Shown here piece by piece: positions 17,617-64,000 of a DNA stretch of 64,000 nt. How positions within the stretch are numbered: the stretch's first letter is position 1; every line of letters starts with the position of its first letter. The stretch lies in the NCBI GenBank assembly GCA_001661245.1, contig KV454018.1, forward strand, positions 631,569 to 695,568, read 5' to 3'. Source of the stretch: Pachysolen tannophilus NRRL Y-2460 (lineage: Eukaryota). A program made the position numbers and the translations under genes. The notes beneath the pieces were generated by a model that did no database searches, was not told the DNA's origin, and saw only the letters and a program-made list of their open reading frames with translations.

Positions 17617-18333
17617 TTAACTTTGTAGAGCTCTTAACCTTTCCCTCATTTCATCCATGACTCCATCTTGTTCACCTTCTACTTCTTCTTGGGCTTCTTT
17701 CTGTTGTTGTTCCTGTTGTTGTTGTTGTTGTGCTTGTCTTTGTTGATCTTCACTGATAAGATCCGAGATCTTGCCATCATCGAGCTTATCAATCTTATCA
17801 CTAACAAAACTATTCAAAATATCATTAATTTCATCTTCTTCAGTTTCACTTTGCATCAATTCATCATCTTCCATTGTATCAGTCATATCATCCATCATTT
17901 CATTCAATACACCCAGTTTCATAAGTTCTTTTTGTAATTCTTGAACAGTATGAGACAATTGTGGTAATTTTACCAATGAATTAATTTCTTTCATTATTGA
18001 AGTTGATTGTGAAATATTTTTATTTAATTTTAACCGCTGTTGTTGTTCATCTAATTGATAACTTATAGAATTTAAAGTTGCCCTTGAAGTTGTTAACCTT
18101 GTCTTTTGTTTATTCATAGAGATCAACTCTTTTGCATAAACTTTTGCACTTTTCTTATCATTTGATTTAATAGCTTTTTTAATCAATGATTCAGTTTTTT
18201 TTTGTAATGGACTTAAACTGTTAATTTCTCTATCCAATTGTCTAATATTCTTTCTTGTTATAGCTTTGCTCTTACGAAATGCCTCCTTCGGGTCCGGCCC
18301 ATATATATATTCCTTTATATAGTTCATGTCCAA
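17617..18333 (-). CDS. VPS24: ESCRT-III subunit Vps24
   Basis: YGPDPKE, AKVYAKEL, INSLVKLPQL, ELMKxG, C-terminal MRERLRALQS. Confidence 0.93.
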   Translation of the reverse strand: MDMNYIKEYIYGPDPKEAFRKSKAITRKNIRQLDREINSLSPLQKKTESLIKKAIKSNDKKSAKVYAKELISMNKQKTRLTTSRATLNSISYQLDEQQQRLKLNKNISQSTSIMKEINSLVKLPQLSHTVQELQKELMKLGVLNEMMDDMTDTMEDDELMQSETEEDEINDILNSFVSDKIDKLDDGKISDLISEDQQRQAQQQQQQEQQQKEAQEEVEGEQDGVMDEMRERLRALQS

Positions 18334-19201
18334 TACATAACATACAACAACACTAATCTTTTACCTCAACACCAATAAATAGAGATGATTGAGAGATATA
18401 CACAGAAACAAAATTACTACTATTTCTACTACTTATTTTTGTATTTTCTTATTCTTTTTTCCCTTCATTTTCCTATAAAGAGACTATTCGCTGCTCAAAA
18501 AAGAAAAGAAAAAAAAAATAAAAAATTAAAAATGAAACTTTTTGTTCTGTTTCTACACGACCAAATAAATAATAAAGAGTAGTGTCAGATGTACACAGTA
18601 AATCAGAATAGGGAAACTGTGGCTCTTTTTTTTTTTTGAAAAAAAAAAAAAAAACACAGAGGTAGTGTTTACAAGTACTAACTTTCCTCATTAGGTAATT
18701 GTTTGAAAAAAGAGCGCGATGTCGGCTTCAACCAGTACTAAACATTTCAAGAATAATCAATCAATAGAATCATGATTTTTATTACAGTGTGTAAGAATGA
18801 AAAATTTTTTCATTAACCTTACTTTTAAGTGAAATAACTTTTCTATCAAATAAGTGTAATTTTATATGAACAGCAAAGCAAAGAAAAAATAGAAAAAACA
18901 TACTTTTAATTCTCATGAGTATATATATCTCTAAAATAATAATATTATTGTAATTTTTTGTTTTTAAGTCGTGGTATTAAAGTTTATCTTTAGTACTGAT
19001 AAAAAAAATCTTTTGTACTGCATCGGAAAAAAATTTTTCAAATTTTTCATTTTTCGGTATCACAATCATTTAGTCATATACTAATAAATTTATAAATATT
19101 TATATATATATATATATATAAATTTGAATATATAGAAGTTAAATTGGAAAAGTTTATATATAAATATATATATATATATATTTATATTGAAATTTTGAAA
19201 A

Positions 19202-20491
19202 ATGTTGAAGGTAAATACTTTGAATTTATTAAAGAAAAGATTTGAGTTTTCTTTACAAGCTCGTTTTTTCCATAATTCTAAAATTAATTTATCTTCGAGT
19301 AAATCTTTGGATAGGGCTACATTAACAATTAGAGATGGTCCTATATTTAATGGGTTTTCATTTGGTGCTAATAAGAATATTAGTGGTGAAGCTGTTTTCA
19401 CCACTTCATTAGTTGGTTATCCAGAATCTATGACTGATCCTTCTTATAAAGGTCAAATTCTTTGTTTTACTCAACCTTTAATAGGTAATTATGGTGTTCC
19501 TTCTGGAAAAGCAAGAGATGAATATGGATTATTAAGATATTTTGAAAGTCCTCATATTCAATGTATTGGTATTGTTGTAAGTGATGTTGCCATGGAATAT
19601 TCTCATTGGACTGCAGTAGAAAGTTTATCACAATGGTGTAAAAGAGAAGGTGTTGCTGGTATTACGGGTGTTGATACAAGATCATTAGTTACTTATTTAA
19701 GAGAACAAGGTTCTTCATTGGCCCGTATCACTGTTGGTGAAGAATACGATGCAGATGAAGATGCTGCGTTTGAAGATCCTGGATCAATAAATTTGGTTCA
19801 TAAAGTTTCAACAAAACTGCCATTCCATATTCTGGCACCAAATGCAAAATATCATGTTGCTGTAATAGATTGTGGTGTTAAAGAAAATATTTTAAGATCT
19901 TTAGTTTCTAGAGGTGCTTCAATTACTGTATTACCATATGATTATCCTATTCAAAAAATTGCAAATAAATTCGATGGAGTTTTCATTTCAAATGGTCCAG
20001 GTGATCCAACTCATTGTTCAACAACAGTTTATAATTTAGAAAAAACTATGCAAGAAAATGAAAAATTACCTATATTTGGTATTTGTTTAGGTCATCAATT
20101 ATTAGCCTTAGCAAGTGGTGCAAAAACAATTAAATTAAAATATGGTAATAGAGCACATAATATTCCTGCATTGGATTTAATTACAAATAAATGTCATATA
20201 ACATCACAAAATCATGGATACGCAGTGGATGCAAAGACTTTAAACCCAAATTTTAAAGAATATTTTATTAATTTAAATGATCAATCTAATGAGGGAATGA
20301 TCCATAAGACAAGACCAATTTTCTCTACACAATTCCATCCAGAAGCAAAAGGTGGTCCATTAGATTCTTCTTACTTATTTGATAAATATTTTGATATGTT
20401 GAAAGCTTACAAGGACAAATCTGGAATTACAAAAAAAATCAATCTTGAAGGATTATTAGTTGATATCTTACCAAAAGAAAGAATAATTTAA
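19202..20491 (+). CDS. CPA1: Arginine-specific carbamoyl-phosphate synthase small subunit with presequence-like N-terminus
   Basis: [56 protein letters not shown]. Confidence 0.96.
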
Positions 20492-20656
20492 ATAATAATA
20501 ACAATCAAAAAGAAAAGAAAAAAAAAAATTCAAGTTTCCAAGTATATATTATCTTTTCTCTTAGACAGTGAGTTTGTTTGTTTAATTGCCTTTCTTTCTT
20601 ATTAGTTTACATAGTTTTAATATATATATATTATTAAAAAAGAAGTGAAACAAAAT

Positions 20657-20756
20657 TGACAATGGCTGGAGTCGAACGCAGCGTTTTTTTTGGTGTAATT
20701 AAAAAAAAAAAAAGGGAAAAAAAGTGATGCGCCTTAACCAACTTGGCCATGGAATC
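20657..20756 (-). pseudogene. tRNA-like relic / Pol III A-box + B-box element
   Basis: (-) GATTCCA-TGGCCAAGTTGGTTAAGGCG-CATCAC, then T-runs, then GCTGC-GTTCGACTCC-AGC; acceptor halves do not pair. Confidence 0.6.
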
Positions 20757-21058
20757 GGATAAAACGGCCGGCGCAAAATGTTTTTACAGAACCAGAACAA
20801 ACTTCACAGAAGAAAAAAAACCTTCACGGCGGAGGCGGCGGCTTCCCTCACCTAATATCTCCCAATTGCTTAGTGGGACGGCGGCAGAGAAACGTGTGTG
20901 TTTTCCCGCCCAAAGAAGAAGGTGAAATGCAGAGAAACAAAGAAAGAAAGAAAAACTTAGGAAAGAAAAAAAAATTTTGGTGCTATAATAATAATAATAA
21001 TATAATTAATATATATAAATAATAGATGAAATTATAATACACAATTCAACTAGTAAAG

Positions 21059-24174: not shown

Positions 24175-24250
24175 TAGTATTAAAAGAGAGGTATTATATA
24201 TATATATTTATATAAATAAATAAATTCAAACTAAACAAGTTTTTCCTATA

Positions 24251-25687
24251 TTATTTTTCATCATCGTAATTAGAATTGCTTCCTAGAACAGACATTACAC
24301 CAACGCTTGTATTACCTGCTGAGCCTGAAGACCCATTGTTATTCGCGCTGTTGTTATTGTTGTTGCTGTTGCTGTTTCCATTCAAAGTACCTTCATTGTC
24401 ATAATCTCCACTCATTTCTTTACACCATTTGTATAAATTTTGTTTAAATTTATCAACTTTAACACAACCGTTTCTAACTTTTGTTAAACATCTGATAAAT
24501 TCTTGATTTCTTTGAAGTGCTATCTGGGTCAACTGTCTTGTTTCTTCCAGGTCTTGAACATTTGTAATGCCGAAATTCACATCCTTGATAAATTCAGGTA
24601 GTTGGAAAAAAGGGTCTTTTATAGATTGATTTTCAATTGATGTTTGGGCTCTTGTTATTCTTCTTGGAAGTGAAGATGATTCTTCAGCATCTTCTTTTGT
24701 ATCATCATTATCTTCATCATCTTGTTCCTGTGCAGGATCTTGCAGCAGCTGTGACAGCAACGACAGTTGCTCACCGATAGATTCAGAACTATTTTTCCTG
24801 TTATTAGTATCATTATTAATTTCTGTATTCAAATCGTCAAAACTTAATTTATGATCATAATCTGGTAATTTCAAATTTTCAGGTAAGATATTATGATAAT
24901 CATCACCCAAGAAAACATCCATTAATTTAGATAGTTGAATAACGCTTTCTTGTTCTTTTTCAATAATTTCTACTGTATCATAAGCCAATTTTAAAAGATG
25001 GTTTCCCTGTTTCAGAGGATTAAAAATTTTAGAAATTGATTTCTTTGTTATCACGTCTGATGGCTGTTGAATCGGTGCCAAGATGCCTGTCAAGTCAATG
25101 GAGTGCAATGGGTTATCATCATCATCGTCTTCAATATCATCAAAATCAAAATCGTTGCGGTTTTTACTGCGGCTACCGCTACCGCTACCACTTCCACTGC
25201 CACTGCCGCCAACGTTTGCCCCGCCATCATCATGTTCATCGTTATTTTCAGCATTAACTTCAACACGCCTTGTCAGTCCATCATCTTCAGCCCTCTCATC
25301 CTTGTACTCTTCTTCATCTTCTAATTCAACTCTATTACCATCCAGATCATAGAAATTATACAATCTATATTTTTTATTTGACCTTTCTGTATCATCATTA
25401 TAATCTTTCAAAATTAACCTTCTCTTATTACGATAGTTCACTAAATCTATCTTTAAGCTGGAAGGATAATACTTCAAGTTCGATATACTTGAAATCCCAC
25501 TATCATCATTCTTAAATAATTTGTTACCTCTATTAGATAATGAATCTACTGAAGCATTATTTACTGAATTATTTATTTCAATATCGTTTACATATTCATC
25601 AAGAACTCTTTTCCTTGTTTTCTTGAGGTCATTTGTAATACGTTCTTTTACCTCAATTATATGATCTAAAGTCGTCTGATCCACCAT
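24251..25687 (-). CDS. RXT2: Rpd3L histone deacetylase complex subunit Rxt2
   Basis: ATG 25687; SNRGNKL, ILAPI..PSD, DPFFQLP, EETRQLTQIALQRNQEFIRCL. Confidence 0.8.
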   Translation of the reverse strand: MVDQTTLDHIIEVKERITNDLKKTRKRVLDEYVNDIEINNSVNNASVDSLSNRGNKLFKNDDSGISSISNLKYYPSSLKIDLVNYRNKRRLILKDYNDDTERSNKKYRLYNFYDLDGNRVELEDEEEYKDERAEDDGLTRRVEVNAENNDEHDDGGANVGGSGSGSGSGSGSRSKNRNDFDFDDIEDDDDDNPLHSIDLTGILAPIQQPSDVITKKSISKIFNPLKQGNHLLKLAYDTVEIIEKEQESVIQLSKLMDVFLGDDYHNILPENLKLPDYDHKLSFDDLNTEINNDTNNRKNSSESIGEQLSLLSQLLQDPAQEQDDEDNDDTKEDAEESSSLPRRITRAQTSIENQSIKDPFFQLPEFIKDVNFGITNVQDLEETRQLTQIALQRNQEFIRCLTKVRNGCVKVDKFKQNLYKWCKEMSGDYDNEGTLNGNSNSNNNNNSANNNGSSGSAGNTSVGVMSVLGSNSNYDDEK

Positions 25688-26180: not shown

Positions 26181-26238
26181 CGCGTCTTTCGAATCACAAG
26201 TGTTTCTCTTTAGTTGAAGAATTCTTTTTAGTACGCGT
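26181..26238 (+). promoter_or_regulatory. MCB (MBF) elements upstream of PCNA
   Basis: ACGCGT at 26233-26238 and CGCGT at 26181-26185, ~120-180 bp before the ATG. Confidence 0.7.
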
Positions 26239-28242: not shown

Positions 28243-30312
28243 TCATTTGATACCAGCCAATCTATGATTGTTCAAATGAATATCAATATCAAGTTTGTCG
28301 GCATCATCTTCTACAGATCTTAATCTTCTCTTTTGAGAATCAACTTCATCACCAACTGTCAAAGCCAATCTTCTTAATCTTAAAGAAGCATCATTTATAG
28401 AGCTTAAGTTACGGCTAATTTCCAATTCCATTTCATCATCTTCTTTATCATTATCGTATTGATATCTTTTAGCTTCTTCTAATCTTTTCTTTGTATCATA
28501 TCTATCGAATAAAGTACTTTTTTCCTTTTCTTTACTTGATAATCCAGACATAACTCTTCTTTCTGTTTGATATTGTTGTGCTCTTAATCTTTCTTCAATT
28601 AATTTTTCTTCATCTTTTTGATTTTTAATTTTAACTTCTTTTTCATGTAAACGCCTTTTTGAATTAAATGGATTTGTAACATGAACTGCCATAAAATTTC
28701 TATTTAATTTTTTCAATTCTTTAACTTTATCATCAGCAATTTTATTTTGAGTCTTTGCTAATGTTAAATTTCTTTCAACGTTATATAAAGTTTCACCTTG
28801 CAGACCCAACATACCTAAAGTATTTTGTCCAGAAACTTCAGCTTCATTTGCCATTCTCATTGTATTTCTTGTAGATGCAACAGATTGTTGTTTTGTAAAT
28901 TTTATTTCTTGTTTTATTGCATCTACTTCTTGATCTTCTTGTTGAAGTTCCAATTCAGCTCTTCTTCTTTCTTCATCGAAAAAAGATTGAGTTTGACTAT
29001 AAGGAGTATCTATAGCAACTTGATGTTGATTTTCATCTTCATCTTGTTGCAGCTCGAATCCCAGTTGATTATATTGATGAAATTGGTCATTACCATTATA
29101 TTCTTCAGGTAATTCATTTAAATCTTCTTCTTCTTCAACTGGTAAATTATTTAAATCTTCCTGATTAACTTTTAATTTTCTAGGTTTTTGTAATTGTGAT
29201 GTTGAACTATACAATACACCTCCACCATTTATTGTTGTCAGATCTGAATTATCATGATCATGTTCACTTTCCACTATACTATAATTATCAGGAGATCTTA
29301 TTGTTAAATTATCTCTTGAATCATGATGTCCAAACAATTTATTCTTTGCATCATCTAATACTGACTCTGTATCATTCGATTCTATTTTACGTAATTGTGG
29401 AGGTGTTCCACCACTTATTGTATTTCTATTTGAATTCTTACTCATTAACGAAGAAGACCTATTTCTTGAAGCTGTACTAGACCATCTAGACAATTTCTTA
29501 TTATAAGGATTCAAAAAATTATTATTATTCATTGAATAATCATGAAGTGGACTACTCGTACTACGTCTAGATTGAATAGACGGAGCTATTGATGCTGAAG
29601 AAGACATAACGGGAGTATGTGGAGGAGTTGAATATGATGCCGTATTATTTGCATTGCTATGGTAAGACGGTAAATCTCTAACTGAGCCAGCATCATCAAA
29701 ATGATTACCATACCGGTTATTACTATTATTATTATTATTATAGCTTCCAGATGGCAGTGGACTCCCAATACGAGATGCATTTCTTGTACCACTAGTACTG
29801 TTATTACGGCCATAATCCATCAGCTCATGTTGCTGATGAAGCCCAAAGTCATCATTATCATCATTCATTAAACCACCATAAGGATTATTACCACTGTTGC
29901 CACCAAGGGCAGCATAAGGATTCTCCGCGGGCCGGCCACCGGCAAGAGCACCAGCACCAGCACCAGCACCAGCGGCAGAGGTACCGCTGCCGCCGAGGTT
30001 TTTGGTGCCGCCGCTTCCGTTACTCTCTGGACTTCCAACCCTATCGAATCTATTCCCACCATCTTCCTCATAATACTCTCCTTGAGAAACACCCCCGCCA
30101 TTCCCAACATCAAAATCGTTAACCGTTCTTGGCTTCAAATAATCTTTAGAATTACCCGACATATTCCTAGCATATTTATTAAAAGCATCGAATTTCAGTG
30201 CTCTCTTCCTATCGGACTTTACAGGAATTCCCAAAGTGTTCAAAGTCTCCTTATTAAATTCCTCCGAATCCTCTTCTGGAGGCTTAATCTTAAGCATCTT
30301 TCTAAAACCCAT
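28243..30312 (-). CDS. SEC9: Plasma-membrane Qbc SNARE
   Basis: IKQEIKFTKQQSVASTRNT, NTLGMLG, LKKLNRNFMAVHVTNPFNS, second SNARE motif ending NHRLAGIK. Confidence 0.92.
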   Translation of the reverse strand: MGFRKMLKIKPPEEDSEEFNKETLNTLGIPVKSDRKRALKFDAFNKYARNMSGNSKDYLKPRTVNDFDVGNGGGVSQGEYYEEDGGNRFDRVGSPESNGSGGTKNLGGSGTSAAGAGAGAGALAGGRPAENPYAALGGNSGNNPYGGLMNDDNDDFGLHQQHELMDYGRNNSTSGTRNASRIGSPLPSGSYNNNNNSNNRYGNHFDDAGSVRDLPSYHSNANNTASYSTPPHTPVMSSSASIAPSIQSRRSTSSPLHDYSMNNNNFLNPYNKKLSRWSSTASRNRSSSLMSKNSNRNTISGGTPPQLRKIESNDTESVLDDAKNKLFGHHDSRDNLTIRSPDNYSIVESEHDHDNSDLTTINGGGVLYSSTSQLQKPRKLKVNQEDLNNLPVEEEEDLNELPEEYNGNDQFHQYNQLGFELQQDEDENQHQVAIDTPYSQTQSFFDEERRRAELELQQEDQEVDAIKQEIKFTKQQSVASTRNTMRMANEAEVSGQNTLGMLGLQGETLYNVERNLTLAKTQNKIADDKVKELKKLNRNFMAVHVTNPFNSKRRLHEKEVKIKNQKDEEKLIEERLRAQQYQTERRVMSGLSSKEKEKSTLFDRYDTKKRLEEAKRYQYDNDKEDDEMELEISRNLSSINDASLRLRRLALTVGDEVDSQKRRLRSVEDDADKLDIDIHLNNHRLAGIK

Positions 30313-37060: not shown

Positions 37061-40000
37061 ATGAGTGTTGGTTACCAGCGTTTTGAGAGTGTTGATTTAA
37101 CTGGTACTAGTGATAGTTATGCCAAGTTGAATAATAATCCTCAGTTTCATGAGGTTGATCGTCTTTTTGAAGATAGATTGAGGCAGTTCATTGACAAGAA
37201 TGGTGGTTATAAAGATTTGAATTTACCAAAGTTTTATGATAGAGGGAGAATTGATAAGAAGAAGCAACATGATGATGATCAAATTTACATTGGTTTGCAG
37301 GTTTATAGTGTTCCGAATTTACAAAGACCATTGTTTAAAGAAGTTATTCCTGAAAAATTATCAGAATTTAAAAGCAGTTCAAAAGGTGATTCTTTTGGAC
37401 CAGGATGGGCAACTTTTTGGTTTCGTATTACTTTTAAGATTTCTCAAAGCTGGATTGATGCTAAACAACAGATTTTATTTGAATGGGATTGTGGGAATGA
37501 AGGTTTAATATATTCTAAAGAGGGAGTCCCTCAACAAGCTTTAACTGGTGGGGGTGAAAGAACAGAGTTTATTCTTCCTGAAAGTTGGTATATTGATGGT
37601 GAAGAACATGTTTTCTATCTTGAGATGGCTTGTAATGGTATGTCAGGAGGTGTAAACGGTGGTAGTAGATTCTCTTTAAGTAAAGCAGATTTGGTTTTAC
37701 CAAATGTAGAAGCTAGAGCTTTACATTATGATTTCTGGATATTGAGTGATGCTGCAAGAGAACTATCACTGACATCATGGCAAAAACATAAGGCTAGAAA
37801 CCTTTGTAATGAAATTATGAATCTGTTTGATCCAAATGATGAACTGACAATTAATAAATGTCGTTTTTTGGCAAAATCATTTTTAGGAAAAGATATTGAT
37901 AGTGCTAAAGTTTATGATAAGAAAGTTAAAAAAATTGATGTTTATGCAGTTGGTAATTGTCATATTGATACTGCTTGGCTTTGGCCATTTGCTGAAACAA
38001 AGCGGAAAGTTGTTAGATCTTGGACTTCTCAAATTAACTTGATGGAAAGATATCCAGAATATAAATTTGTTGCATCTCAAGCACAACAATTCCAATGGTT
38101 GAAAAAATATCATCCAGAAATTTTTTCAAAAGTTAAACTGAAAATCTCAGAAACACAATTTTTCCCAATTGGTGGAAGTTGGGTTGAAAATGATACTAAT
38201 TTACCAAGTGGAGAATCTTTAAGCAGACAATTCTTATTGGGTCAAAGATTTTTCTTGGATAATTTTGGATTTAAATCTGATACTTATTGGCTTCCAGATA
38301 CTTTTGGTTATTCTTCTCAAATCCCACAATTATGTAGATTGGCAGATATGCCTACTTTCTTAACCCAGAAACTTTCTTGGAATAATATCAATAGGTTTCC
38401 AAATACTACTTTTAACTGGGTTGCAATTGATGGATCCCAAGTTTTATGTCACATGCCTCCTGATAACACTTATACTGCATCTGCAGATTTTGGTGATGTT
38501 AAAAGATCTTTACTGCAACATACAAACTTAGGAACTGACCAAAGTGGTTTGCTTTTGTATGGTAAAGGTGATGGTGGTGGTGGTCCAACCCCAGAAATGT
38601 TGGAAAAATTACGCCGTTGTAGAGGTTTAACAAATACTGTTGACTCAGATTTGCCAGTTGTTCAAGTTGGTCCTTCAATTGAAGAATTCTATGAAAACAT
38701 CTTGAAAACTACCAATAATGGTAAGACATTACCATCTTGGAAAGGTGAGTTATATTTGGAGTATCATAGAGGTACTTATACTACTCAAGCAGAAGTTAAG
38801 AAATTTATGAGATCTACAGAATTTTTATTACATGATTTAGAATATCTTGCAACATTGGCATCTGTTCAGTATCCTGATGATTACTCTTATCCTTTGGATA
38901 CACTTCATGAAATTTGGGAAAATACTTGTCTTTGTCAATTTCACGATGTCTTACCTGGTTCTTCAATTGAAATGGTTTATAAAGATGAAGTTAAACCAAT
39001 GCTTCGTAAAAATCTTCAAAAATTGGGTAATTTGATTGAAGAAATCTTTGATATTTTTAAAGAAAAACAACAAGTGAAACAGGGTTCTACTTCAAACGGT
39101 AATGTTGTTTGTATTAATTCTTTACCATTTCCAAGATCAGGTTTATTTGAAATTTCAAATGAAAGATATGCATCGTTATCACTTGATATCAAAAACATTC
39201 AAACAGGTTACAAGAATGATAAAAATTTGGTTTATCTCGAATCAGCTAGTGATTCATATCATATAATGAAACCTATCGCTAATAGAATTAAGAATGGAGC
39301 TCAAATTAGCTATAACGAAAAGGACAAGACTTATATCTTATCTAATAGTAAATTGAAGGCCACGATCAACAGCAATGGTGTCATCACTAGCCTTGTGGAT
39401 TTAGCTAACGGTGAGAGAGAGGTTATTTCACTCTCTGACTCAGGTAGAAACACGAGAGGGGGTAATCAATTTGTAGTATTTGATGATCAGCCATTGAATT
39501 TCCCTGCTTGGGATACAGAGTTGTATTCTTTAGATAAATACAAATATTTGGAAAATCCTACAAAGATTGAAATTGTATCCGAGGGTCCATTGAGAGCTTC
39601 ATTAAAAGTTAAACACTCCATTGGTGCTGAATCATGGATTTCAACAACTATTTCTTTAGATGCTGTTAATGATGAACTGGAAAATGATAGTGGGGTTTCA
39701 TTTTTAGTTTTTGAAAATGAGGTTGAATGGCATGAAACTTACAAATTTTTAAAAGTAGAATTTCCTGTTGACATTAATTCAGACTTTGCAAGTTATGAGA
39801 CTCAATTTGGTTTGACAAAGAGAGCAACACATTTCAACACGTCATGGGAAGCAGCCAAATTTGAAGTATGTTCTCATAAATTTGCTGATTATTCTGATTT
39901 CAACTATGGTGTTTCGATCTTGAATGATTCCAAATATGGGTTCAGTATTCATGGTAATTTGATGAGATTATCTCTTTTAAGATCTCCAAAGAGTCCAGAT

Positions 40001-40501
40001 GCTACAGCAGATATGGGTCATCATGAGTTTAAATATGCGTTATATCCTCATAAAGGTTCATTGGGTGTTGACACAGTTAGAGCTGGTTATATTTTCAACG
40101 ATAGATTATCTAGCTTAAAGAAAGATGAATCAATTTTCACTCAAGGTTTAGATTCTGACATCTTCCCTCAATTAGTTGAAATCACAGGTGATTCTAATTT
40201 AATCTTATCAAACGTTAAGAGAGGAGAAGACGATGAAGGAATTTCTTCTGTTGAAACAAATTTACAAAAAAAATTTGTTGGTTCAAAAACTATTATATTA
40301 AGAGTTTACGAATCTTTAGGTGGTAAATCAAAAGGTTTCATCAATGTTGATTTACCAATTGAAAAAGTTTTCAAAGTTAATTTATTAGAAGAAGAATTAG
40401 AAGAAATTGATGTAGTAGAAGGTAAAGACGGTAAGAACGGATTTGACATCACCTTAAGAGGTTTTGAAATTGCATCTTACCGTGTTGTCTTTTCAAATTA
40501 A
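37061..40501 (+). CDS. AMS1: Vacuolar alpha-mannosidase (GH38)
   Basis: ATG 37061; GNCHIDTAWLWP, WLPDTFGYS, GDGGGGP, GELYLEYHRG, QFHDVLPGS. Confidence 0.96.
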   Translation: MSVGYQRFESVDLTGTSDSYAKLNNNPQFHEVDRLFEDRLRQFIDKNGGYKDLNLPKFYDRGRIDKKKQHDDDQIYIGLQVYSVPNLQRPLFKEVIPEKLSEFKSSSKGDSFGPGWATFWFRITFKISQSWIDAKQQILFEWDCGNEGLIYSKEGVPQQALTGGGERTEFILPESWYIDGEEHVFYLEMACNGMSGGVNGGSRFSLSKADLVLPNVEARALHYDFWILSDAARELSLTSWQKHKARNLCNEIMNLFDPNDELTINKCRFLAKSFLGKDIDSAKVYDKKVKKIDVYAVGNCHIDTAWLWPFAETKRKVVRSWTSQINLMERYPEYKFVASQAQQFQWLKKYHPEIFSKVKLKISETQFFPIGGSWVENDTNLPSGESLSRQFLLGQRFFLDNFGFKSDTYWLPDTFGYSSQIPQLCRLADMPTFLTQKLSWNNINRFPNTTFNWVAIDGSQVLCHMPPDNTYTASADFGDVKRSLLQHTNLGTDQSGLLLYGKGDGGGGPTPEMLEKLRRCRGLTNTVDSDLPVVQVGPSIEEFYENILKTTNNGKTLPSWKGELYLEYHRGTYTTQAEVKKFMRSTEFLLHDLEYLATLASVQYPDDYSYPLDTLHEIWENTCLCQFHDVLPGSSIEMVYKDEVKPMLRKNLQKLGNLIEEIFDIFKEKQQVKQGSTSNGNVVCINSLPFPRSGLFEISNERYASLSLDIKNIQTGYKNDKNLVYLESASDSYHIMKPIANRIKNGAQISYNEKDKTYILSNSKLKATINSNGVITSLVDLANGEREVISLSDSGRNTRGGNQFVVFDDQPLNFPAWDTELYSLDKYKYLENPTKIEIVSEGPLRASLKVKHSIGAESWISTTISLDAVNDELENDSGVSFLVFENEVEWHETYKFLKVEFPVDINSDFASYETQFGLTKRATHFNTSWEAAKFEVCSHKFADYSDFNYGVSILNDSKYGFSIHGNLMRLSLLRSPKSPDATADMGHHEFKYALYPHKGSLGVDTVRAGYIFNDRLSSLKKDESIFTQGLDSDIFPQLVEITGDSNLILSNVKRGEDDEGISSVETNLQKKFVGSKTIILRVYESLGGKSKGFINVDLPIEKVFKVNLLEEELEEIDVVEGKDGKNGFDITLRGFEIASYRVVFSN

Positions 40502-43545: not shown

Positions 43546-45970
43546 ATGACGGTGGATGGCAACAACGATTTGTCCTTTATTGAGGCGCAAAAAGTGAGTA
43601 AAAGGTTTTTTGTTTGTTTGTTTGTTTGAGATTAATCGATTTGTTCAAATTACTAAGAAGGAAAATAATAATGATGATGTATAAATGTAGACGGTTTACG
43701 TGTTGGAATGCAAACAAAACACTTTGTATGAACCACGATCAGTCTTACAAGATGGAGTTCCAATAGTGGCAAAGAAGTACAGGCATTTGCCAATGCTTCA
43801 ATTATTGGAAGGAAAAGAGGATTTGGATAATTGTTCAGTGAGGCTTGATTTATTTAAACAACTTTGGATTAATAAACAATTAATCATTGATAATATATTA
43901 AAGGATAGGAATAAACAAATTTTTAAAGAATTAAATGATTTTTTAGTTAATAAGAAGCAAGAGAACGAGATGAATAAATTTGGGAAAAAAATTTCTAGTC
44001 TGTTGTTAACAATGGGGACAAATTTATCAAATCATTCTTTAATATATGATAATTTAATATCTTATCTTGAAAGAGAAAATCAAAATACAAATAATATTTT
44101 CAAAATTGTTCGAATATCACCAAGAGAATGTTCTAATATGAAAAATACATTAAGATCAATAATTTCACAAATTCTTGTTGAAAACGAGGTGAATGATAAT
44201 AACGAAATCCTGGAAGACGATGAACAAGAAGAAGAAGAAGAAGATGAAGATGATGATGACGATGATGAAGATGAAGATGAAGATATGGGTGAAGTTGAAG
44301 TAAACAATTTTTTAAATTATGATTTTGATGCCGTTATAGATTGGTACCATAACATCAGTACAAAGAATGTTCGAATTGTGATTTTGATTGAAGAATCAGA
44401 ACTTTTCCCATCGAGTATATTGAATTTGTTATTAAATTTATTCAAAAAGGCAGGTATGATAAATGTTTTCAAATTAATATTTTGTTTATCATCATCTATA
44501 GAACTATTTGAAGAAAATTTACCTTTGGAACTAATCAGCATGATTGAAGGCACAATATTTAATATTGATAACTCTAAAAAAATTATAAATAATATTGCTG
44601 ATGAAATTTTATTTCCAACAAATTTTGAAAATAATGAATTAAACTTATTATTTGGTGTGACTATTATAGATCAATTGCTAAACCATGAACAAGATGAAAT
44701 TGGATTTGTAAACGTGTTGAAATACAGTTATTCCATATATTTTTTCAACAATCCATTAAGTATTTTAAACATAATTGAAGCAGAAGATCAATTAGAGAAA
44801 GAACATATAGAATGTTTAAGAATGTTACCATCATTTATGAGATATCTGGAAAGTTTAGATAAACAAATGGCAATTGAATACGTTAAAGATGATTTGAAAT
44901 TAACTCAATTATTTAAAACAAATTTTGAAAATTATCAAAAATGGGTTTCAAAATTTTATCAAATATTAAATTTATTCATAGAATTACAAAATAAATTTAA
45001 TAATGATTTAGTGATTATAGATAAACTTGAAATTTATCATAATATCTTAAAATATGGTGATTTTTTCTATAATATGCAATTTTATAAAGAATTGAAAAAT
45101 TGTATTTTAAAAAATGCATCATTTGATAATATCCTGTCATTGCTTTTATTTTTGAAAAAAAATGATCATTTAAATCATATTTATCAAGATGTTGATGCTA
45201 AATTTTCATCAAGAATAAATAGTTTATTCAACAATAATAATGATATTGATAATAAAAGGCAAAATAACACCAATAACGTTTTATCAAAAGAATTGGAATC
45301 AATTTCAACAGAAATTCTTAAAATGTTAGAAATTGAAATTAGGAAAACTTTATCTTTATTTACAAAAGATAAAGAAGATGGTGATGAGCAAATTGTATTT
45401 ATTGAAGTTTTCATAATTGATATTGGGAAAAATCATACTCAAAATATTTTAACATCTGCATTTAAACCTCCAATTAGATCAGTTATTGATACCGCACTAA
45501 GTCACCCTAGGAAATACCTAAATATCACCAATGATAACAACAACAGCAACGACGACGACAACACTGATAAAGTTTATTCGAAATTATCATTTGCAGTGGA
45601 ACCTATTTTAAATGAACTTTTTAGGCTATACTGTGAAGCCAACACATTCATAAACATATACGATTTCTACGTAGCTTTCAAAGAATCATTACCGCGGTCA
45701 AAAATCATAAAGAGCCTACTAGAAATGTTAAAAAATGGGGAATTCACTCATGATATAATTTCAGAACCAAGTGAGCTAGAAGAAATGATCCAATTCCTCA
45801 GTGATTTGAATAAAGAACAAGATGATGAATCTACCAATTTGAAATGGGACAAGTTGTGTTTGGCATGGTTCTCACAGGGAATAATGGAACTAGAATACCT
45901 AGGACTAGTTAGAGACGCCTATAAGAAGAAAAGTGAAAGCTTGGAGAAGTTGATATGGAAAGGTTTATGA
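43546..45970 (+). CDS. ORC3: Origin recognition complex subunit 3 (spliced: 43546-43593, 43691-45970)
   Basis: Exon1 ...FIEAQK, intron GTGAGT...TACTAAG...TAG; YSYSIYFFNNPLS, LRMLPSF, LFRLYCEANTFINIYDFY, AWFSQGIMELEYLG. Confidence 0.88.
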
Positions 45971-55300: not shown

Positions 55301-55333
<33 letters not shown>

Positions 55334-55706: not shown

Positions 55707-56663
55707 ATGCCATCATCAACACCGTCAACACTGTCAACACTGTCAACGCAGTCACCACTGTCACCACCGCATAAGACCAGGACTCATTTGATATCGGGAT
55801 TTACAGGGGGATTGACATCGGCCGTGGCGTTACAGCCATTTGACTTACTAAAGACTAGGATCCAGCAGACGAGACATGCAACTTTGAAATCGGCCCTTGG
55901 GGAATTACATTCGGTTCGTGAATTATGGAGAGGAACATTGCCTTCTGCGTTGAGAACTTCTATTGGAAGTGCTTTATATTTAACTTTTTTAAATTCAAGC
56001 AGATCTTACTTATTTAACAAGAGACATTTAGAGAATGGCCATGAATATATCCATGGTAAGGAAGCACCGAGCTCATCAAGGTTACCAAAACTATCTGCTG
56101 CTGAAAATTTACTTACAGGAATGTTTGCAAGAACTGCAATTGGGTTTGTCACTATGCCTATAACGATAATAAAAGTTAGGTATGAGTCTAGGTCATATAA
56201 CTATTCATCAATTTATGAAGCTGCTTCTTCTATCTTAAAAAATGAAGGTATTAAAGGATGTTTCAGTGGATTTTGGGCCACAGCAGCTAGAGATGCTCCT
56301 TATGCTGGTCTATATGTTTTATTTTATGAAAAATTAAAAGTAATATTTGCCAAACTGCTGTATACCCCTTATGAAGTTGGGAAAGATTATAATACATCAG
56401 AATCTGCTTTGATAAATTCATCATCGGCTATAATAGCAGCCAGTTGTTCTACTTTGATTACTGGCCCATTTGATACAATAAAGACAGTAATGCAATTAGA
56501 TCCTAAGCTAAATCATAGCCTTAAATCTACTGTGGTAAATTTGTACAAAAGTGGTGGTTTCATTCGATTTTTTGATGGAATGAGTTTAAGATTAATTAGA
56601 AAAGGTTGTAGTGCTGGGATTTCTTGGTGCATTTATGAAGAGTTGATAAAATATTTCAGTTAA
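55707..56663 (+). CDS. HEM25: Mitochondrial glycine carrier (SLC25A38 family)
   Basis: LQPFDLLKTRIQQ, LWRGTLPSALRTSIGSALY, MPITIIKVRYES, RDAPYAGLYVLFYE. Confidence 0.92.
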   Translation: MPSSTPSTLSTLSTQSPLSPPHKTRTHLISGFTGGLTSAVALQPFDLLKTRIQQTRHATLKSALGELHSVRELWRGTLPSALRTSIGSALYLTFLNSSRSYLFNKRHLENGHEYIHGKEAPSSSRLPKLSAAENLLTGMFARTAIGFVTMPITIIKVRYESRSYNYSSIYEAASSILKNEGIKGCFSGFWATAARDAPYAGLYVLFYEKLKVIFAKLLYTPYEVGKDYNTSESALINSSSAIIAASCSTLITGPFDTIKTVMQLDPKLNHSLKSTVVNLYKSGGFIRFFDGMSLRLIRKGCSAGISWCIYEELIKYFS

Positions 56664-57279: not shown

Positions 57280-57341
<62 letters not shown>

Positions 57342-58868
57342 GGTAGTAGTAGTAGTAGCATTATAAGTATTATTGATGTTGTTGTTATTGCTCATTAACA
57401 TGTTCAATAAACCAGGTTGGTTAAGCTGTTGAAGCATCTGTGGATCTAAAAAATTCATGGATACACCATCTGTTCCATTAGCAGACGGAGTCGAAGAACC
57501 CAGTCTTTTATTAGCTGTCAAATTCATCTGATTTAATAGTAATTGTGATTGCAGCTGTTGCAGCTGCTGCAGCAAGAGTTGGTCTTGGCTTGGGAATTGA
57601 GTGTTAAGCTGATGGGAAATTTGTGGGGTATTTGGATGGCTTTGATTCACGAGTTGAGGGGTTAATGACGACGGTGTAAAACCAATATGAGGTGAATTCA
57701 GTTGTTGTCGCTGTTGCTGTTGTTGCTGCTGCCTTTGAGTTTGTGCATAAGGTTGTTGTTGTTGCTGAATTGGAAACTGAGTTACTAGTTGCGGTGATGT
57801 GTGTTGATACTGTAGCTGTTGTTGCTTTTGTTGTTGCTGCTGCTGTTGCTGTTGCTGAAGTGAAAGTCGTTGATAGAGAGCCGCCGCAGTAGCTGCTTGT
57901 TTTTGCTGCGATTCAAACTGCTGCATTCTCAATTGTTGTAATTGTTGCACAGAAAGATTTTGCTGCTGTTGAGTATTGGTGTTTTCACTTTTTGCCGATG
58001 AAGGTCTTCTTTTACCAGCCATTGTATTAATATTTGATTTATTAGCAGTTGTCGTTGCAGCAGCTCTCTGTTGCAATTGAGGTCCCCGAGCATTGGGGAG
58101 TGTGTTATTTTGCTGCAGAAGCATCAGCAGCAGCAGAAGATTATTTTTAGCAAAAGCCAGTGCAGGTGGCGGTGGCATCGAACTAAACTGTTGATTTTGC
58201 AGTTGTTGATTTTGCAATTGCGGATTTTGCAATTGCGGATTTTGCAATTGCTGATTACGCAGTTGCTGATTTTGCAATTGTTGATTATGCAGTTGCTGGT
58301 TTTTCTTGTTATTCTGTTTCACCGATGAATGTAGTTCCCATAATAATTCCCACCATTCAAATAAAAAAGATCCTTCAGAGTTCATCAACATATTTATATC
58401 TATACTTTCCTTAATATTAAACTCACCACTTAAATCGTTTAATTTCCGTAATAAATTTGAAATTTCATCAGGATCATTCAAATCACCTATCCCTGAACCA
58501 CCCAGTCCATTGTGATCTCCTTTATTCTCATTATTGATCTTGGAAATACCAAGTGGAAGATAATTCAACCCTTTCTCAAGATTCTCAATAACTAATTTTT
58601 GTGCAGTTTGATAATTACCATTTTGAATAAGATAATTAAACAAATGGGCAAACAAAAGCTGCTTGGAATTCTTGGCCAATGAATCAGAAACCGTTACTTT
58701 CCTTAAACCATCCTCCTTATTATCTTGTTGTTCCACTTGCTCTTCCATTTGTTGTATTTGTTCTGGTTGCCGAGACTCTTGAGGCTGCTCTTCATCCGCT
58801 GCCTCTCCACACGCTGCTTCATTGTCTTCATTATCCGTAACGTCAGAATTGATGTCACTATGATCCAT
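56904..58868 (-). CDS. LisH/LUFS-domain Q-rich transcription factor (Flo8/Mss11 family)
   Basis: ATG 58868; SKQLLFAHLFNYL...TAQKL, SFLFEWWELLWEL, C-terminal DYQQNLLMLEN. Confidence 0.75.
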
Positions 58869-59095
58869 TACCACCCTATTGAGATATAAGATATCCCCTT
58901 AACCTCTATCTCTATCTCTATCTCTATCTCATTCAAGAGCTACTAATTATTAATAAAATATATTTGAAGATTAAAAAATTTTACATAGTAAAAAAAATAA
59001 AAAACACAAATTAAAAAAATAAAATAAAACAAACCGTGTTAAAGCAATCAATTAATTATTAAAATTGAATAAAAATTGAAATGAATAGGTTTGAT

Positions 59096-59701: not shown

Positions 59702-59870
59702 GATTTTATAGATTTACTGATAATATATTTGAAATCTTCAATTGATAATATATTTTATATATATAATTATATAATTATATAACTATAGATAATAAATATC
59801 AAAAATTACCTTGATAAATTGTACAGGTTTTATATATATTATTATATTTATATATATATATAAATACAAA

Positions 59871-60815: not shown

Positions 60816-60896
60816 TTTTATTTTTATTTATAAAAAAATTATATACAGTGAATTGTTTTCTTTTTCTTTTTCTTTTTTTAACAAAAGAAAACCTCT

Positions 60897-61682: not shown

Positions 61683-61935
61683 ATTCTCTTTTGCTAACCA
61701 CTTTAAAAATTCTAATCTATCCTAATCTTTAATACCTTTTCTTCTTCTTCGTTGATTTTGAAAAATTTTTGACTACAATTTTCAATTGACGGAAAATTGG
61801 TGAAAACAAAAAATTGGGTCATCGCACGACCCAATTATTATAATTTATAACTAAAAAATGGGTCAGCAAATGGCCCATTTTATAGTTGAATAACCACCGA
61901 CAACGTTGAGTTTCAAGTAAAAGATTTTGGTAGGG

Positions 61936-63030
61936 ATGATGAACTTGGGTTTTGTAGCAGGTACTAGACCGATAGCGTTTGTATCTGTGCGGAATGATTC
62001 AAAAATTTATTTGAAATGTTTTTCAAAAATTTTCACGAGAAAGTATTCTCCGTTGCCACGGTATGATCCTACTGTACCACAACCTTCAAATAGAAGACAA
62101 CGAACAAGAAATAGAGTTTTACGAGATGATAATTTATCTGGGAGTATTGATAGCTATACGCACTCGCCACGTTATGATTACCCCTCTGAGTTTTATCCGC
62201 CGAATCCACGGGGTACGATTTCTCATTCGGATCCAATTGCTGAACTTTTATCACAACCTACATTAGTTATTGAAAGACAATTGGAATTGATGAATGTTTT
62301 CTTGGGGTTTGAACAGGCAAACAAATACCTGATTATGGATACAAGCGGTGCACAGTTGGGGTATCTGATGGAGAGAGATATTTCGTTTGTGAAGATGTTT
62401 ATGAGACAAGTTTATCGATTACATAGACCTTTCACTGTTGATGTCTTTGATATAAAGGGAAACTTGTTATTAACTATAAGAAGGCCTTTTAGTTTTATAA
62501 ATTCACACATCAAGTCGATTTTACCTGGAATTAGAAATGAGGAAACCGGTAATGAATTGATTGTTGGAGAATCGATTCAAAGTTGGCATTTATGGAGAAG
62601 AAGGTATAATTTATTCAAGACAGAATTGAGTGCTAGCTCCATTGACTCCACAAATGAGGTAACTGGTAATATCTCTAATACCAGTGATCCAGCAGTGAAA
62701 GAGGATATCGCATTTGAACAATTTGGGTATATAGACGCACCTTTCTTATCGTTTGAATTCCCAGTGAAAAATGAAAATGGAGAGATTATAGGTTCCGTTG
62801 ATAGAAATTGGGTAGGAATAGGAAGAGAATTATTTACAGACACAGGTGTCTACATCATGAGAATGGACCCTTCAAGTTTTCAAGGCATGGAAGGAGTATA
62901 CTCAAACATTGCAGGGCCAATGACTTTGGATCAAAGAGCTATAATGTTGGGTACAGCTATAAGTATCGATTTTGACTACTTCTCAAGGCACAGTAGCGGC
63001 AATGGTGGACTCATAGACTACGCAGACTAA
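61936..63030 (+). CDS. AIM25: Mitochondrial scramblase-family protein
   Basis: PTLVIERQLELMNVFLGFEQANKY, RLHRPF, WHLWRRRYNLF, RNWVGIGRELFTDTGVY, DFDYFSRHS. Confidence 0.92.
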   Translation: MMNLGFVAGTRPIAFVSVRNDSKIYLKCFSKIFTRKYSPLPRYDPTVPQPSNRRQRTRNRVLRDDNLSGSIDSYTHSPRYDYPSEFYPPNPRGTISHSDPIAELLSQPTLVIERQLELMNVFLGFEQANKYLIMDTSGAQLGYLMERDISFVKMFMRQVYRLHRPFTVDVFDIKGNLLLTIRRPFSFINSHIKSILPGIRNEETGNELIVGESIQSWHLWRRRYNLFKTELSASSIDSTNEVTGNISNTSDPAVKEDIAFEQFGYIDAPFLSFEFPVKNENGEIIGSVDRNWVGIGRELFTDTGVYIMRMDPSSFQGMEGVYSNIAGPMTLDQRAIMLGTAISIDFDYFSRHSSGNGGLIDYAD

Positions 63031-63110
63031 ACCCTAAATACACCTTATATATATTCAAATAAAATTAACCTATTTATTTCCTTTTTTTTGCATGATTCTC
63101 ATTATAGTTT

Positions 63111-63210
63111 GTAAACATAGTAAACATAGTAAACATAGTAAAAGATCCACCTCACACCATTCCACACCATTCCACACCACTTGCACCATCTACACCTCTC
63201 ACACCACCAC
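63111..63210 (+). repeat. (GTAAACATA)x3 followed by degenerate CACACCAYTY repeats
   Basis: 63111-63137 three 9-mers; 63147-63210 C/A-rich ~10-bp units. Confidence 0.75.
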
Positions 63211-63280
63211 AATAAGTCGTGTAATTTTATACTAATCGGTTTTCCTGTGTTTTTTTTTTTTTTTGGTGATAGCTTTCAAA

Positions 63281-63289
63281 ATCGCCACT
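63281..63289 (-). promoter_or_regulatory. PACE-like (Rpn4) element upstream of proteasome gene
   Basis: (-) AGTGGCGAT ~100 bp before the PRE7 ATG. Confidence 0.5.
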
Positions 63290-63385
63290 AAATTGAATAA
63301 TAAGAAGGTTCTGAATAGACAAAAGCCTTGGTAACAAGAGTACAATTGGATACGTTAGAGAGTTGGAATTAATTGAGTACGGATC

Positions 63386-64000
63386 ATGAGTGCTTCATCT
63401 TTTGCTGAGGGTAAACTGACGATTGCTTCTGAGTATTCGTCTGAGGTTCGTCGTGAACCTATTGAACATCAATTTAATCCTTATTCAGATAATGGAGGAA
63501 CTATATTAGGTATTGCAGGAAAAGATTTTGCTGTATTAGCTGGGGACACAAGACATACAACTGGGTATTCTATAAACTCTAGATATGAGCCAAAGGTGTT
63601 TGATGCTGGAGATGGGTTTCTTATAAGTGCCAATGGGTTTTCAGCTGATGGTAATGCTTTAGTAAAAAGATTTCAAAATCAATTAAAATGGTATCATTTT
63701 AATCATGGTAAAAAAATGGGTATAAGATCTGGAGCAAGATTTATTCAGCATTTGCTTTATGGTAAGAGGTTTTTCCCTTATTATGTTCATACAATTATTG
63801 CTGGTTTAGATGAAGAAGGTAAAGGTGCAGTATTTTCGTTTGATCCTATTGGTTCATATGAAAGAGAACAGTGTAGGGCAGGTGGTTCTGCAGCATCATT
63901 GATCATGCCTTTCTTGGATAACCAAGTAAATTTCAAAAATCAATTGGACCCGGAGTCCAATGGTACGAAAAAGAAAGAATTGAGATATCTTTCTTTAGAA
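63386..64000 (+). CDS. PRE7: 20S proteasome beta-6 subunit (runs off window end; absent from ORF track)
   Basis: ATG 63386; TIASEYSSE...PIEHQFNPYSDNGGTILGIAG...LAGDTR...LYGKRFFPYY...CRAGGSAASLIMPFLDNQV. Confidence 0.95.
   Translation, partial: MSASSFAEGKLTIASEYSSEVRREPIEHQFNPYSDNGGTILGIAGKDFAVLAGDTRHTTGYSINSRYEPKVFDAGDGFLISANGFSADGNALVKRFQNQLKWYHFNHGKKMGIRSGARFIQHLLYGKRFFPYYVHTIIAGLDEEGKGAVFSFDPIGSYEREQCRAGGSAASLIMPFLDNQVNFKNQLDPESNGTKKKELRYLSLE

Follow-up and report, generated by a model that had tools for sequence, protein, structure and literature searches.

Alanine as the reading of CUG in a 64,000-nucleotide stretch of Pachysolen tannophilus DNA

The window (the whole stretch of 64,000 nucleotides analysed here) is almost certainly nuclear DNA of Pachysolen tannophilus, or DNA indistinguishable from it at Mdn1, and comes from a genome in which CUG is read as alanine by means of a single-copy tRNA(CAG) with a tRNA-Ala body. 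This corresponds to NCBI table 26, which we take to be the Pachysolen tannophilus nuclear code. The assignment rests on that tRNA together with a P. tannophilus protein record and published peptides, and not on alignment columns. CUG-Ala has been in print since 2016 and is counted among the three nuclear reassignments of CUG known in yeasts, so that the sequence-only reading, which proposed a Pachysolen-type CUG-Ala code for this DNA, reached a conclusion that is right but not new. Its own argument is weaker than stated, as its tally leaves Ala and Ser unseparated, three of its six sites are columns of neither residue, and its two repeats fail to discriminate.

The tRNA(CAG), the deposited proteins and the published peptides

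A tRNA(CAG) with a G3:U70 pair had been predicted from the window, and such a gene is indeed present elsewhere in the genome (Table 1; local coordinates L031:232-303, minus). The intron-free tRNA is 72 nt long, begins with GGGC, carries G37 and A73, pairs G1-C72, G2-C71 and G3-U70, and has a variable loop of 4 nt in place of a long variable arm. Judged by percent identity, its two best matches among 21 tRNAs are tRNA-Ala(AGC) and tRNA-Ala(UGC) (52/73 and 49/73 identical), and in a 22-row tree with anticodons masked it clusters with both tRNA-Ala with a support of 82/94, which falls under the tool's 95/80 mark. In GGGC, G3:U70, A73, G37 and the short arm it matches the published P. tannophilus tRNA(CAG), compared by description only, and we find no difference in code from that reported for this yeast (Muhlhausen et al. 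2016, PMC4937558).

One copy of the tRNA(CAG) gene was found in the genome, and no tRNA genes were found inside the window. A generic tRNA pattern gave 83 matches, of which 33 were assigned via ARAGORN (one of them CAG) and 50 were judged by eye, and none of eight candidates with CAG in Leu or Ser patterns is a tRNA. The inventory is incomplete, since an Rfam tRNA search, in which 63 of 1,003 candidates were scored, did not pick up the tRNA(CAG) found by pattern. For the other CUN codons the genome has tL(AAG) and tL(UAG), the latter with an intron and a G3-C70 pair.

Over the 4,957 positions compared, Mdn1 differs from a P. tannophilus record (P0121) only where the codon is CTG, and there the record has alanine at 28 of 28; this is one gene, and its next match is at 58%. 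The AMS1 record (P0001) has alanine at 6/6 CTG positions, and public records show alanine at 39 of the 39 CTG positions compared. The table-26 form of VPS24 is present in the public collection, and its table-1 and table-12 forms are absent; five of the seven table-26 proteins looked up exactly are without a letter-for-letter match, that of Aim25 failing because the record begins one codon downstream. These records are not independent evidence, because they apply the published code. By LC-MS/MS, alanine was found at 97.2% of 907 fully supported CUG positions in P. tannophilus, with peptides spanning 8.5% of CUG positions, 26 positions showing another or a mixed residue, and CUG ambiguity no greater than that of AUG (PMC4937558). 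The same study finds CUG in 80% of P. tannophilus genes, and we find CTG in 274 of 340 sampled ORFs (81%).

The best surviving alternative is that CUG is mostly alanine with some leucine, inserted through wobble of tL(UAG) or through mischarging aided by G37, and mattering at a few hydrophobic positions or under unsampled conditions; we consider this improbable. It gains from the G37 of the tRNA(CAG), a residue tied to 3% leucine mischarging in C. albicans (PMC5951914), from the existence of tL(UAG), from the limited span of the peptides with their 26 other or mixed positions, and from two CTG codons. One occupies a Met/Leu column of AIM25 (codon 144; M111 L7 I1 in 119 homologues), which counts against alanine and was read from the assembly letters; the deposited record has alanine there. 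The other falls, in a Chk2-like kinase, on a conserved Leu close to the C-terminal His-x-Trp, with Leu in 18 aligned paralogues and in Chk2. Against it stand the AUG-like level of CUG ambiguity and the absence of a long variable arm. Moreover, the conserved columns under CTG also include P, P, V, Q, E, G and K, so that single substitutions explain the Met/Leu cases equally well; at AIM25, a single base separates ATG from CTG, and an ATG codon follows directly.

CTG codons in alignment columns

The column tally proposed in the sequence-only reading was run: leucine was rejected, and alanine and serine were left unseparated in the sample. Over 38 CTG orthologue columns the means are 0.107 for Ala and 0.099 for Ser; among columns with a residue at 50% or more, two are Ala, none is Ser and five are others (V, Q, P, P, M). 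Published CUG positions are described as reassigned "mainly at conserved alanine positions" (PMC4937558), in contrast to these two columns of 38, whereas the rarity of CUG and its placement at poorly conserved sites in the CUG-Ala clade (PMC5951914) is the same here.

Serine at CUG, the reading used by the Candida clade (Ser1) and the Ascoidea/Saccharomycopsis clade (Ser2), is very improbable here, yet a few dozen columns alone would call this code Ser, and the tRNA must therefore be checked. Serine has the top likelihood over the 38 columns, alanine trailing by 14.9 nats (raw) or 1.8 (log-odds); in 2,000 bootstraps of 34 columns, Ser led in 1,831 and Ala in 148 with raw scores, and Ser in 908, Ala in 736 and Gln in 307 with log-odds. 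It probably tops the likelihood only because CTG columns are variable, with an entropy of 2.78 bits against 1.54 for GCN. When columns are matched for entropy, Ser is depleted under CTG relative to Ser codons (0.105 vs 0.285, with none of 2,000 resamples that low), and Ala is at 0.113 vs 0.252 in GCN columns. None of the 232 columns in which Ser reaches 50% holds a CTG, a weak test in that the conserved genes of Ser2 species are poor in CUG, and two of the 199 in which Ala reaches 50% hold one.

Protein families give a similar result. Tables 1, 12 and 26 were applied to 21 CTG-bearing window proteins, 19 of which had Pfam families, and we counted the 14 families with a shift above 0.1 bit and CTG inside or flanking, leaving out the CTG-free ORC_WH_C and families with negligible shift. 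The best reading was Ser in eight, Ala in four and Leu in two, with summed gains over Leu of +18.5 bits for Ser and +16.3 for Ala; ORC3_N scores 128.8 bits with Ala, 127.2 with Leu and 126.2 with Ser. The residues neighbouring CTG resemble those of Gln, with Ala ranking 18th of 20, but since a control recovered 50/58 codons at offsets 2-4 and 14/58 at offset 1, such profiles report context and not codon meaning. Dipeptide repeats were matched 42 times by (CAR-CTG)3, 49 by (CAR-GCN)3, 42 by (CAR-TCN)3 and 27 by (CAR-CTH)3; ten of 12 CTG loci checked were in frame (8/9 distinct sites). They give no verdict between Ala and Ser, because overlaps were counted, few frames were checked and the reverse strand can read Gln-Leu. 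What decides against serine is the sole tRNA(CAG) found, which has neither the long variable arm nor the G73 of the genome's tRNA-Ser and is identical to them at 39-41 of 82 positions, together with published peptides that carry alanine (PMC4937558).

That CTG is not leucine, as the sequence-only reading held, is borne out far beyond chance. The column method recovered 60/60 other codons, with Tra1, Dyn1, Tor and a second PIKK locus left out of the set. Mean Leu is 0.050 in the 38 CTG columns, compared with 0.628 in 720 columns of other Leu codons and 0.543 for CTT/CTC/CTA; when 34 Leu-codon columns were resampled 5,000 times, the Leu content never fell to that of the 34 CTG columns, and with entropy matching the values are 0.054 for CTG and 0.297 for Leu codons, with none of 2,000 resamples that low. 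Of the 519 columns in which Leu makes up at least half, none has CTG, while CTA occurs in 26 and CTC in 12. The standard code, with CTG as a rare Leu codon falling by chance in variable regions, is refuted by these column statistics and has next to no probability left. Nor was a Leu-type tRNA(CAG) found among the pattern candidates; the AIM25 and kinase columns and the two Pfam families that score best as Leu are what speaks for the standard code. Columns of paralogues, for which 30 kinases and 30 DEAD-family helicases were taken from the genome, were dropped as a codon test, being too variable with Leu slightly ahead (30 of 33 CTG scorable; mean A 0.057, S 0.085, L 0.090; at least 50% Leu in 2/30). 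Sequencing error as a general source of CTGs was rejected, there being 970 CTG in 190,624 codons.

CTG codons and repeats of the window

Table 1. Coordinates of the CTG codons and repeats discussed, with the tRNA(CAG) gene (window positions except for the tRNA).
Feature	Position	Strand	Remarks
tRNA(CAG)	G000:C6:217831-217902	-	pattern search; outside window
VPS24 CTG codon 138	17914..17916	-	in frame; ORF 17617-18327
CPA1 CTG codon 206	19817..19819	+	ORF 19202-20491; window's best Ala site
RXT2 CTG	24548..24550	-	in frame; ORF 24251-25687 with 8 CTG
SEC9 CTG, first SNARE motif	28801..28803	-	in frame; ORF 28243-30312 with 7 CTG
AMS1 alpha-mannosidase	37061..40501	+	6 CTG: 37769, 37823, 37844, 38138, 38513, 39677
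ORC3 CTG codon 70	44000..44002	+	aligned to A (two ORC3 chains) or T (5v8f_C)
ORC3 CTG codon 352	44846..44848	+	V column in all 3 alignments shown
Hem25-like mitochondrial carrier, six 9-bp repeat units at start	55716..55769	+	ORF 55707-56663
(CTG)4 run	58125..58136	-	in frame; Gln-rich ORF 56904-58868, 19 CTG
AIM25 CTG codon 132	62329..62331	+	in frame; ORF 61936-63030
AIM25 CTG codon 144	62365..62367	+	conserved Met column; absent from the list of the sequence-only reading
PRE7 CTG codon 11	63416..63418	+	ORF from 63386, continues past window edge

The window contains 109 in-frame CTG codons, spread over 23 of the 33 ORFs that are 200 codons or longer. Six of them, in VPS24, CPA1, RXT2, SEC9, AIM25 (codon 132) and PRE7, had been put forward as falling in columns that are alanine in homologues, occasionally serine and not leucine. 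All six are in frame and none lies in a Leu column; the proposed alanine held for two of them (PRE7 and CPA1), VPS24 is mixed, and the remaining three are neither Ala nor Ser columns. The PRE7 codon pairs with residue A2 of the proteasome beta-6 chain (10mt_M). At CPA1 the eight closest aligned representatives have A 6, S 1 and V 1, and all 147 aligned rows have E43 K24 A17 S13, no L and 9 gaps. VPS24, which lends something to the serine reading, has S in the Vps24 chain 6zh3_B and A in CHMP3 chains. The AIM25 column reads K67 V16 A11 T9 R9 I3 S3 Q1 with no L in 119 homologues, and that of SEC9 is H in Sec9 chains and E in SNAP-25. The RXT2 codon is uninformative, as the alignment to chain 8ga8_M is poor around it and it pairs there with an I adjoining a gap.

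Elsewhere, the six CTG columns of AMS1 are variable in 119 homologues, the most frequent residues being G, T, K, E, H and S, and at ORC3 codon 352 the Val codon GTG is one base from CTG. Five sequencing runs from two studies, one of these runs flagged as a possible source, contain all sampled words of positions 59000-64000, with no RNA run listed among those containing such words, and a metagenome scan with a Vps24 query gave no relative.

Two repeats had also been thought to read more naturally as alanine; both exist, the (CTG)4 run in frame, and neither discriminates. The third codons of the Hem25 units are, in order, CCG, CTG, CTG, CAG, CTG and CCG, a DNA-level repeat with a varying middle base that is silent on alanine. 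The (CTG)4 run is flanked by CTT on one side and by ATG-CTT-CTG on the other. Seven of the CTG codons of its ORF are in Gln-rich positions; no Pfam family was found in this ORF, whose Flo8-like label comes from the sequence-only reading.

CTG in glutamine-rich tracts and a possible route to alanine

CTG is found in Gln-rich contexts and at Val, Pro, Gln and Met columns. Gln-rich positions hold 51 CTG and 27 GCN, and repeats of the form (Gln-CTG)n are frequent in frame. The ratio of CTG to CAG in these positions is 0.25 and that of CTA to CAA is 0.026, a difference of about 9.5-fold (gene bootstrap 4.3-18.5; CCG/CCA control 1.4) for the same A-to-T change, which also counts against leucine. We tentatively suggest that CAG, CCG, GTG and ATG are now one step from alanine via CTG, that CUG-Ala codons are mostly arrivals from these and not recoded Ala codons, and that the proteome shows it; CTG as the main source of alanine in polyglutamine tracts is part of the same suggestion, on a comparison within this genome alone. 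A full-text literature search did not turn up this pattern, nor does PMC4937558 mention it in its main text.

Alanine at CUG most probably arises as follows. The tRNA(CAG) gene identified here carries Ala identity elements, and alanyl-tRNA synthetase would charge its product via G3:U70 and A73 while ignoring the anticodon, the missing long variable arm presumably barring leucyl-tRNA synthetase (PMC4937558, PMC5951914). Within the limits of the searches made, a Leu- or Ser-type tRNA(CAG) competitor appears absent; tL(AAG) and tL(UAG) would read the remaining CUN codons, the latter presumably without wobble onto CUG (PMC4937558). The published peptides, which carry alanine at CUG (PMC4937558), would be the outcome. 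CTG codons lie mostly at variable or low-complexity positions, and many probably derive, through one substitution, from CAG, CCG, GTG or ATG and not from GCN, which would be why small tallies say that CTG is not leucine without giving a clean alanine signal.

The CUG-Ala clade, or order Alaninales, comprises Pachysolen, Nakazawaea and Peterozyma (PMC5951914; PMC11182611), and CUG as alanine belongs to the diagnosis of the order in PMC11182611, which also names OG0016373 as a protein family specific to the order. In CUG-Ser1 (Candida albicans) and CUG-Ser2 (Ascoidea, Saccharomycopsis) the same codon is reassigned, with an anticodon-mutated tRNA and an anticodon-blind synthetase, and most Ser1 tRNAs share G37 with the P. 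tannophilus tRNA(CAG). Their tRNA(CAG) derives from tRNA-Ser, whereas the one described here is of Ala type, and most Ser2 species retain tL(CAG), whereas a second tRNA(CAG) was not found here.

With CUG as alanine, all 109 of the CTG-encoded residues counted above switch from Leu to Ala, so that standard-code translations of those ORFs are wrong at CTG, as the sequence-only reading had suspected, and genes swapped between P. tannophilus and standard-code hosts need CTG recoding. If the tentative reading of the glutamine-rich tracts is true, CUG-Ala yeasts would be a natural test of the effect of the code on low-complexity regions of regulatory proteins; and if the CTG excess in these tracts is specific to such yeasts, a change of code would be seen to steer the evolution of low-complexity regions.

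CTG codons of the window and the exclusion of leucine

The window lies on contig C8 of G000, the 12.6 Mb genome that holds it; it has 28% G+C and is yeast DNA carrying ordinary housekeeping genes, with 109 in-frame CTG codons spread over 23 of the 33 ORFs that reach 200 codons. A sequence-only reading had proposed that CUG encodes alanine, citing CTGs at supposed alanine columns in VPS24, CPA1, RXT2, SEC9, AIM25 and PRE7, a (CTG)4 run in a Flo8-like ORF and a 9-bp repeat in a Hem25-like carrier. All six codons and the run are in frame where it placed them, and the repeat is present; Flo8-like, Hem25, Sch9, Dun1/Mek1 and epsin are labels that we presume for ORFs without a Pfam or PDB match.

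CTG is not read as leucine. Among 38 CTG columns, each covered by 80 or more aligned homologues (Ams1 6, Mdn1 28, Aim25 2, Cpa1 2), leucine averages 0.050, compared with 0.628 for the 720 columns of other leucine codons (0.543 in 178 CTT/CTC/CTA columns), and CTG occupies none of the 519 columns with at least 50% leucine. In the Ams1 and Mdn1 set, none of 2,000 entropy-matched resamples of leucine columns is as leucine-poor as CTG, and as a control the likelihood method recovered the standard residue for 60/60 other sense codons.

Searches for homologues of the six cited sites placed X at CTG; that for CPA1 used table 26 (CTG as Ala), with X in its alignment. None of the six columns is leucine, and the claim that they are alanine columns holds in part: PRE7 and CPA1 are alanine and VPS24 alanine or serine, and AIM25, SEC9 and RXT2 are neither. 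The repeats are no help, the Hem25 units ending CCG, CTG, CTG, CAG, CTG, CCG and the (CTG)4 run having CTT codons on its flanks. Ten residues precede the PRE7 CTG, and a Lys aligns with the initial residue of the solved chain; PRE7 either has a short extension at its N terminus or starts elsewhere. The second AIM25 CTG, uncited before, is followed by ATG at a mostly Glu column and may be a tolerated change from Met to Ala, an error in the base call or a site read as Leu.

Positions of features, with aligned residues for CTG codons
Feature	Position	Observation
Window	G000:C8:631569-695568	
PRE7 CTG		A in proteasome beta-6 chain 10mt_M
PRE7, before CTG	63386-63415	10 residues
CPA1 CTG		A 6/8, S 1, V 1 among closest aligned representatives; E43 K24 A17 S13, no L, in all 147 aligned rows
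VPS24 CTG		S in Vps24 chain; A in CHMP3
AIM25 CTG	62329	K67 V16 A11 T9 R9 I3 S3 Q1 of 119
AIM25 second CTG	62365-62367	M111 L7 I1 of 119
SEC9 CTG		H in Sec9; E in SNAP-25
RXT2 CTG		I, gap adjoining
ORC3 CTG	44846	Val column
(CTG)4 run	58125-58136	in frame
Mdn1 CTG	L052 codons 1690, 2040, 2537	Val (70%), Gln (68%), Pro (96%) columns
Chk2-like kinase ORF	L098:1078-2490 (G000:C2)	CTG at the conserved Leu immediately preceding the C-terminal His-x-Trp; 18 of the aligned paralogues, and Chk2, have L
Gln-rich CTG clusters, in-frame (Gln-CTG)n	window 56904-58868; L178:2446-3492; L180-L191	
tRNA(CAG)	G000:C6:217831-217902, minus strand; L031:232-303	single copy
tL(UAG)	L034:98-234 (G000:C8:422116-422249)	intron ~52 nt
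Ams1	37061-40501	
Aim25	61936-63030	
Intron-like stretches	~21000-21170; 26400-26541	GT donor, branch-like motif, AG
Runs of N	22319-22527; 30643-31027	gaps in the assembly, or stretches withheld

One intron-like stretch lies upstream of a SurE-like ORF and another upstream of a PCNA-like ORF, and because of them both ATG-to-stop ORFs are truncated. Ams1 and Aim25 are 21 kb apart; their homologues in several other yeasts lie on contigs of matching length (42,847; 46,943; 30,710; 429,850), with adjacent locus tags in one, suggesting that the linkage is old.

Alanine or serine

Column data cannot tell alanine from serine. The 38 columns have mean A 0.107 and S 0.099, and by summed likelihood serine ranks first, with alanine behind by 14.9 nats using raw probabilities and 1.8 using log-odds. 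Bootstrapping 34 columns gives serine in 1,831 and alanine in 148 of 2,000 raw replicates, and serine 908, alanine 736 and glutamine 307 of 2,000 by log-odds. When proteins were scored against Pfam with tables 1, 12 and 26 (CTG as Leu, Ser and Ala), 14 families moved, serine being best in 8, alanine in 4 and leucine in 2, and paralogue columns at 30 sites average A 0.057, S 0.085 and L 0.090, two being Leu-dominated. Variability is unusually high in CTG columns (2.78 bits, versus 1.54 for GCN), which have less alanine than matched GCN columns (0.113 versus 0.252) and less serine than matched serine columns (0.105 versus 0.285). A majority residue occurs in 10/38, being alanine in two (one at 116/119) and neither serine nor leucine in any; on these small numbers such columns lean towards alanine. 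The column tally that had been suggested as a check on the code, with 38 columns, therefore rejects leucine and leaves alanine unseparated from serine.

The decoding tRNA settles this question for alanine. The G3:U70 tRNA(CAG) that the same reading had said to look for was reached by a pattern search of the genome, and it carries A73 too; it is 72 nt long and intronless, with 5′ GGGC, G37 and a variable loop of 4 nt. The published Pachysolen tRNA(CAG) is alike in G3:U70, A73, G37 and lack of a long arm (PMC4937558). By percent identity the top two matches of the tRNA(CAG) in G000, among 21 tRNAs compared, are that genome's tRNA-Ala(AGC) (52/73) and tRNA-Ala(UGC) (49/73); the four Leu tRNAs share 40-50 of 82-84 columns with it, the two Ser tRNAs 39-41 of 82. 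In an anticodon-masked tree it groups with both tRNA-Ala (82/94, under the tool's star), and the Leu and Ser tRNAs form a separate group of their own. A search of the genome for Leu/Ser-type tRNAs with NAG anticodons found no tRNA(CAG) of that type (34 matches, none of the 8 with CAG being a tRNA); tL(AAG) is present, and so is tL(UAG), which has an intron and one match in the pattern search. Wobble of tL(UAG) onto CUG is conceivable in principle.

The tRNA inventory is partial, the Rfam search having scored 63 of 1,003 candidates, and 50 of the 83 pattern-search matches were judged by eye alone. The tRNA(CAG), absent from the 63, has a C-C mismatch in its T stem and an anticodon stem of all U-A but one pair. 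Contig C10, with many closely spaced tRNA matches within 30 kb, is probably the mitochondrial genome.

CTG in glutamine-rich stretches

Across 340 ORFs (190,624 codons) from the window and fetched loci, CTG occurs at 5.1 per 1,000 codons with Gln-rich neighbours (log2 enrichment 1.0), and at 1,402 Gln-rich positions it is third in codon enrichment, behind CAG and CAA. These positions hold 51 CTG (20 ORFs, two supplying 22) versus 27 GCN; an ORF that we take to be epsin-like has 15 CTG among its glutamines. CTG/CAG is 0.25 versus 0.026 for CTA/CAA, the middle-base change being alike in both, and the ratio of the two in a gene-level bootstrap is 9.5 (4.3-18.5), with a CCG/CCA control of 1.4 (0.6-3.2). 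Of 42 (CAR-CTG)3 matches in the genome, 12 loci were checked, and in 10 the long frame reads Gln-x-Gln-x.

This pattern supports CTG not being leucine; it cannot part alanine from serine because Gln-Ser repeats are equally common in the repeat-pattern search. Five of the ten majority columns are V, Q, P, P and M, with codons one base from CTG, and the Val, Gln and Pro columns under CTG in L052 and L053 (Pro/Gln in the latter) likewise have such codons. From this genome we infer that most CTGs may be single-base arrivals at tolerant sites. We found no prior report of the pattern in a full-text literature search or the main text of PMC4937558, whose supplements could bear on the point.

Species match and the CUG-Ala code

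Searching with Mdn1 retrieved a record that bears the name Pachysolen tannophilus and is equal to the G000 translation across 4,957 compared positions save 28/28 CTGs, all A; the runner-up has 58% identity. Deposited records of the window's Ams1 and Aim25 have A at 6/6 and 2/2 CTGs. An exact look-up in the public protein collection found the table-26 Vps24 and Cpa1; it gave no match for their table-1 (2/2) or table-12 (1/1) forms or for five other table-26 proteins. Such records show the code already in use and are not independent evidence for it.

The CUG-Ala code is real and was rightly read, given the Ala-type tRNA(CAG), the absence of CTG from leucine columns and the Mdn1 match. Of the synthetases, AlaRS and SerRS are the pair that can dispense with the anticodon (PMC5951914). 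In the proposed mechanism, of which the present data supply the tRNA gene with its alanine elements, the CTG-free leucine columns and the species match, tL(UAG) may carry a modification that keeps it from reading CUG. The route is disputed between tRNA loss and an intermediate with ambiguous decoding, for which selection against tL(CAG) was the driver (PMC4937558, PMC5951914); our data have no bearing on it. Codetta agrees with known clades in 453/462 yeasts (PMC8629427). The code is already known and was described in 2016 from this species; LC-MS/MS of Pachysolen placed alanine at 97.2% of the 907 CUG positions that had full support, while 8 were mixed and 18 carried another residue (PMC4937558).
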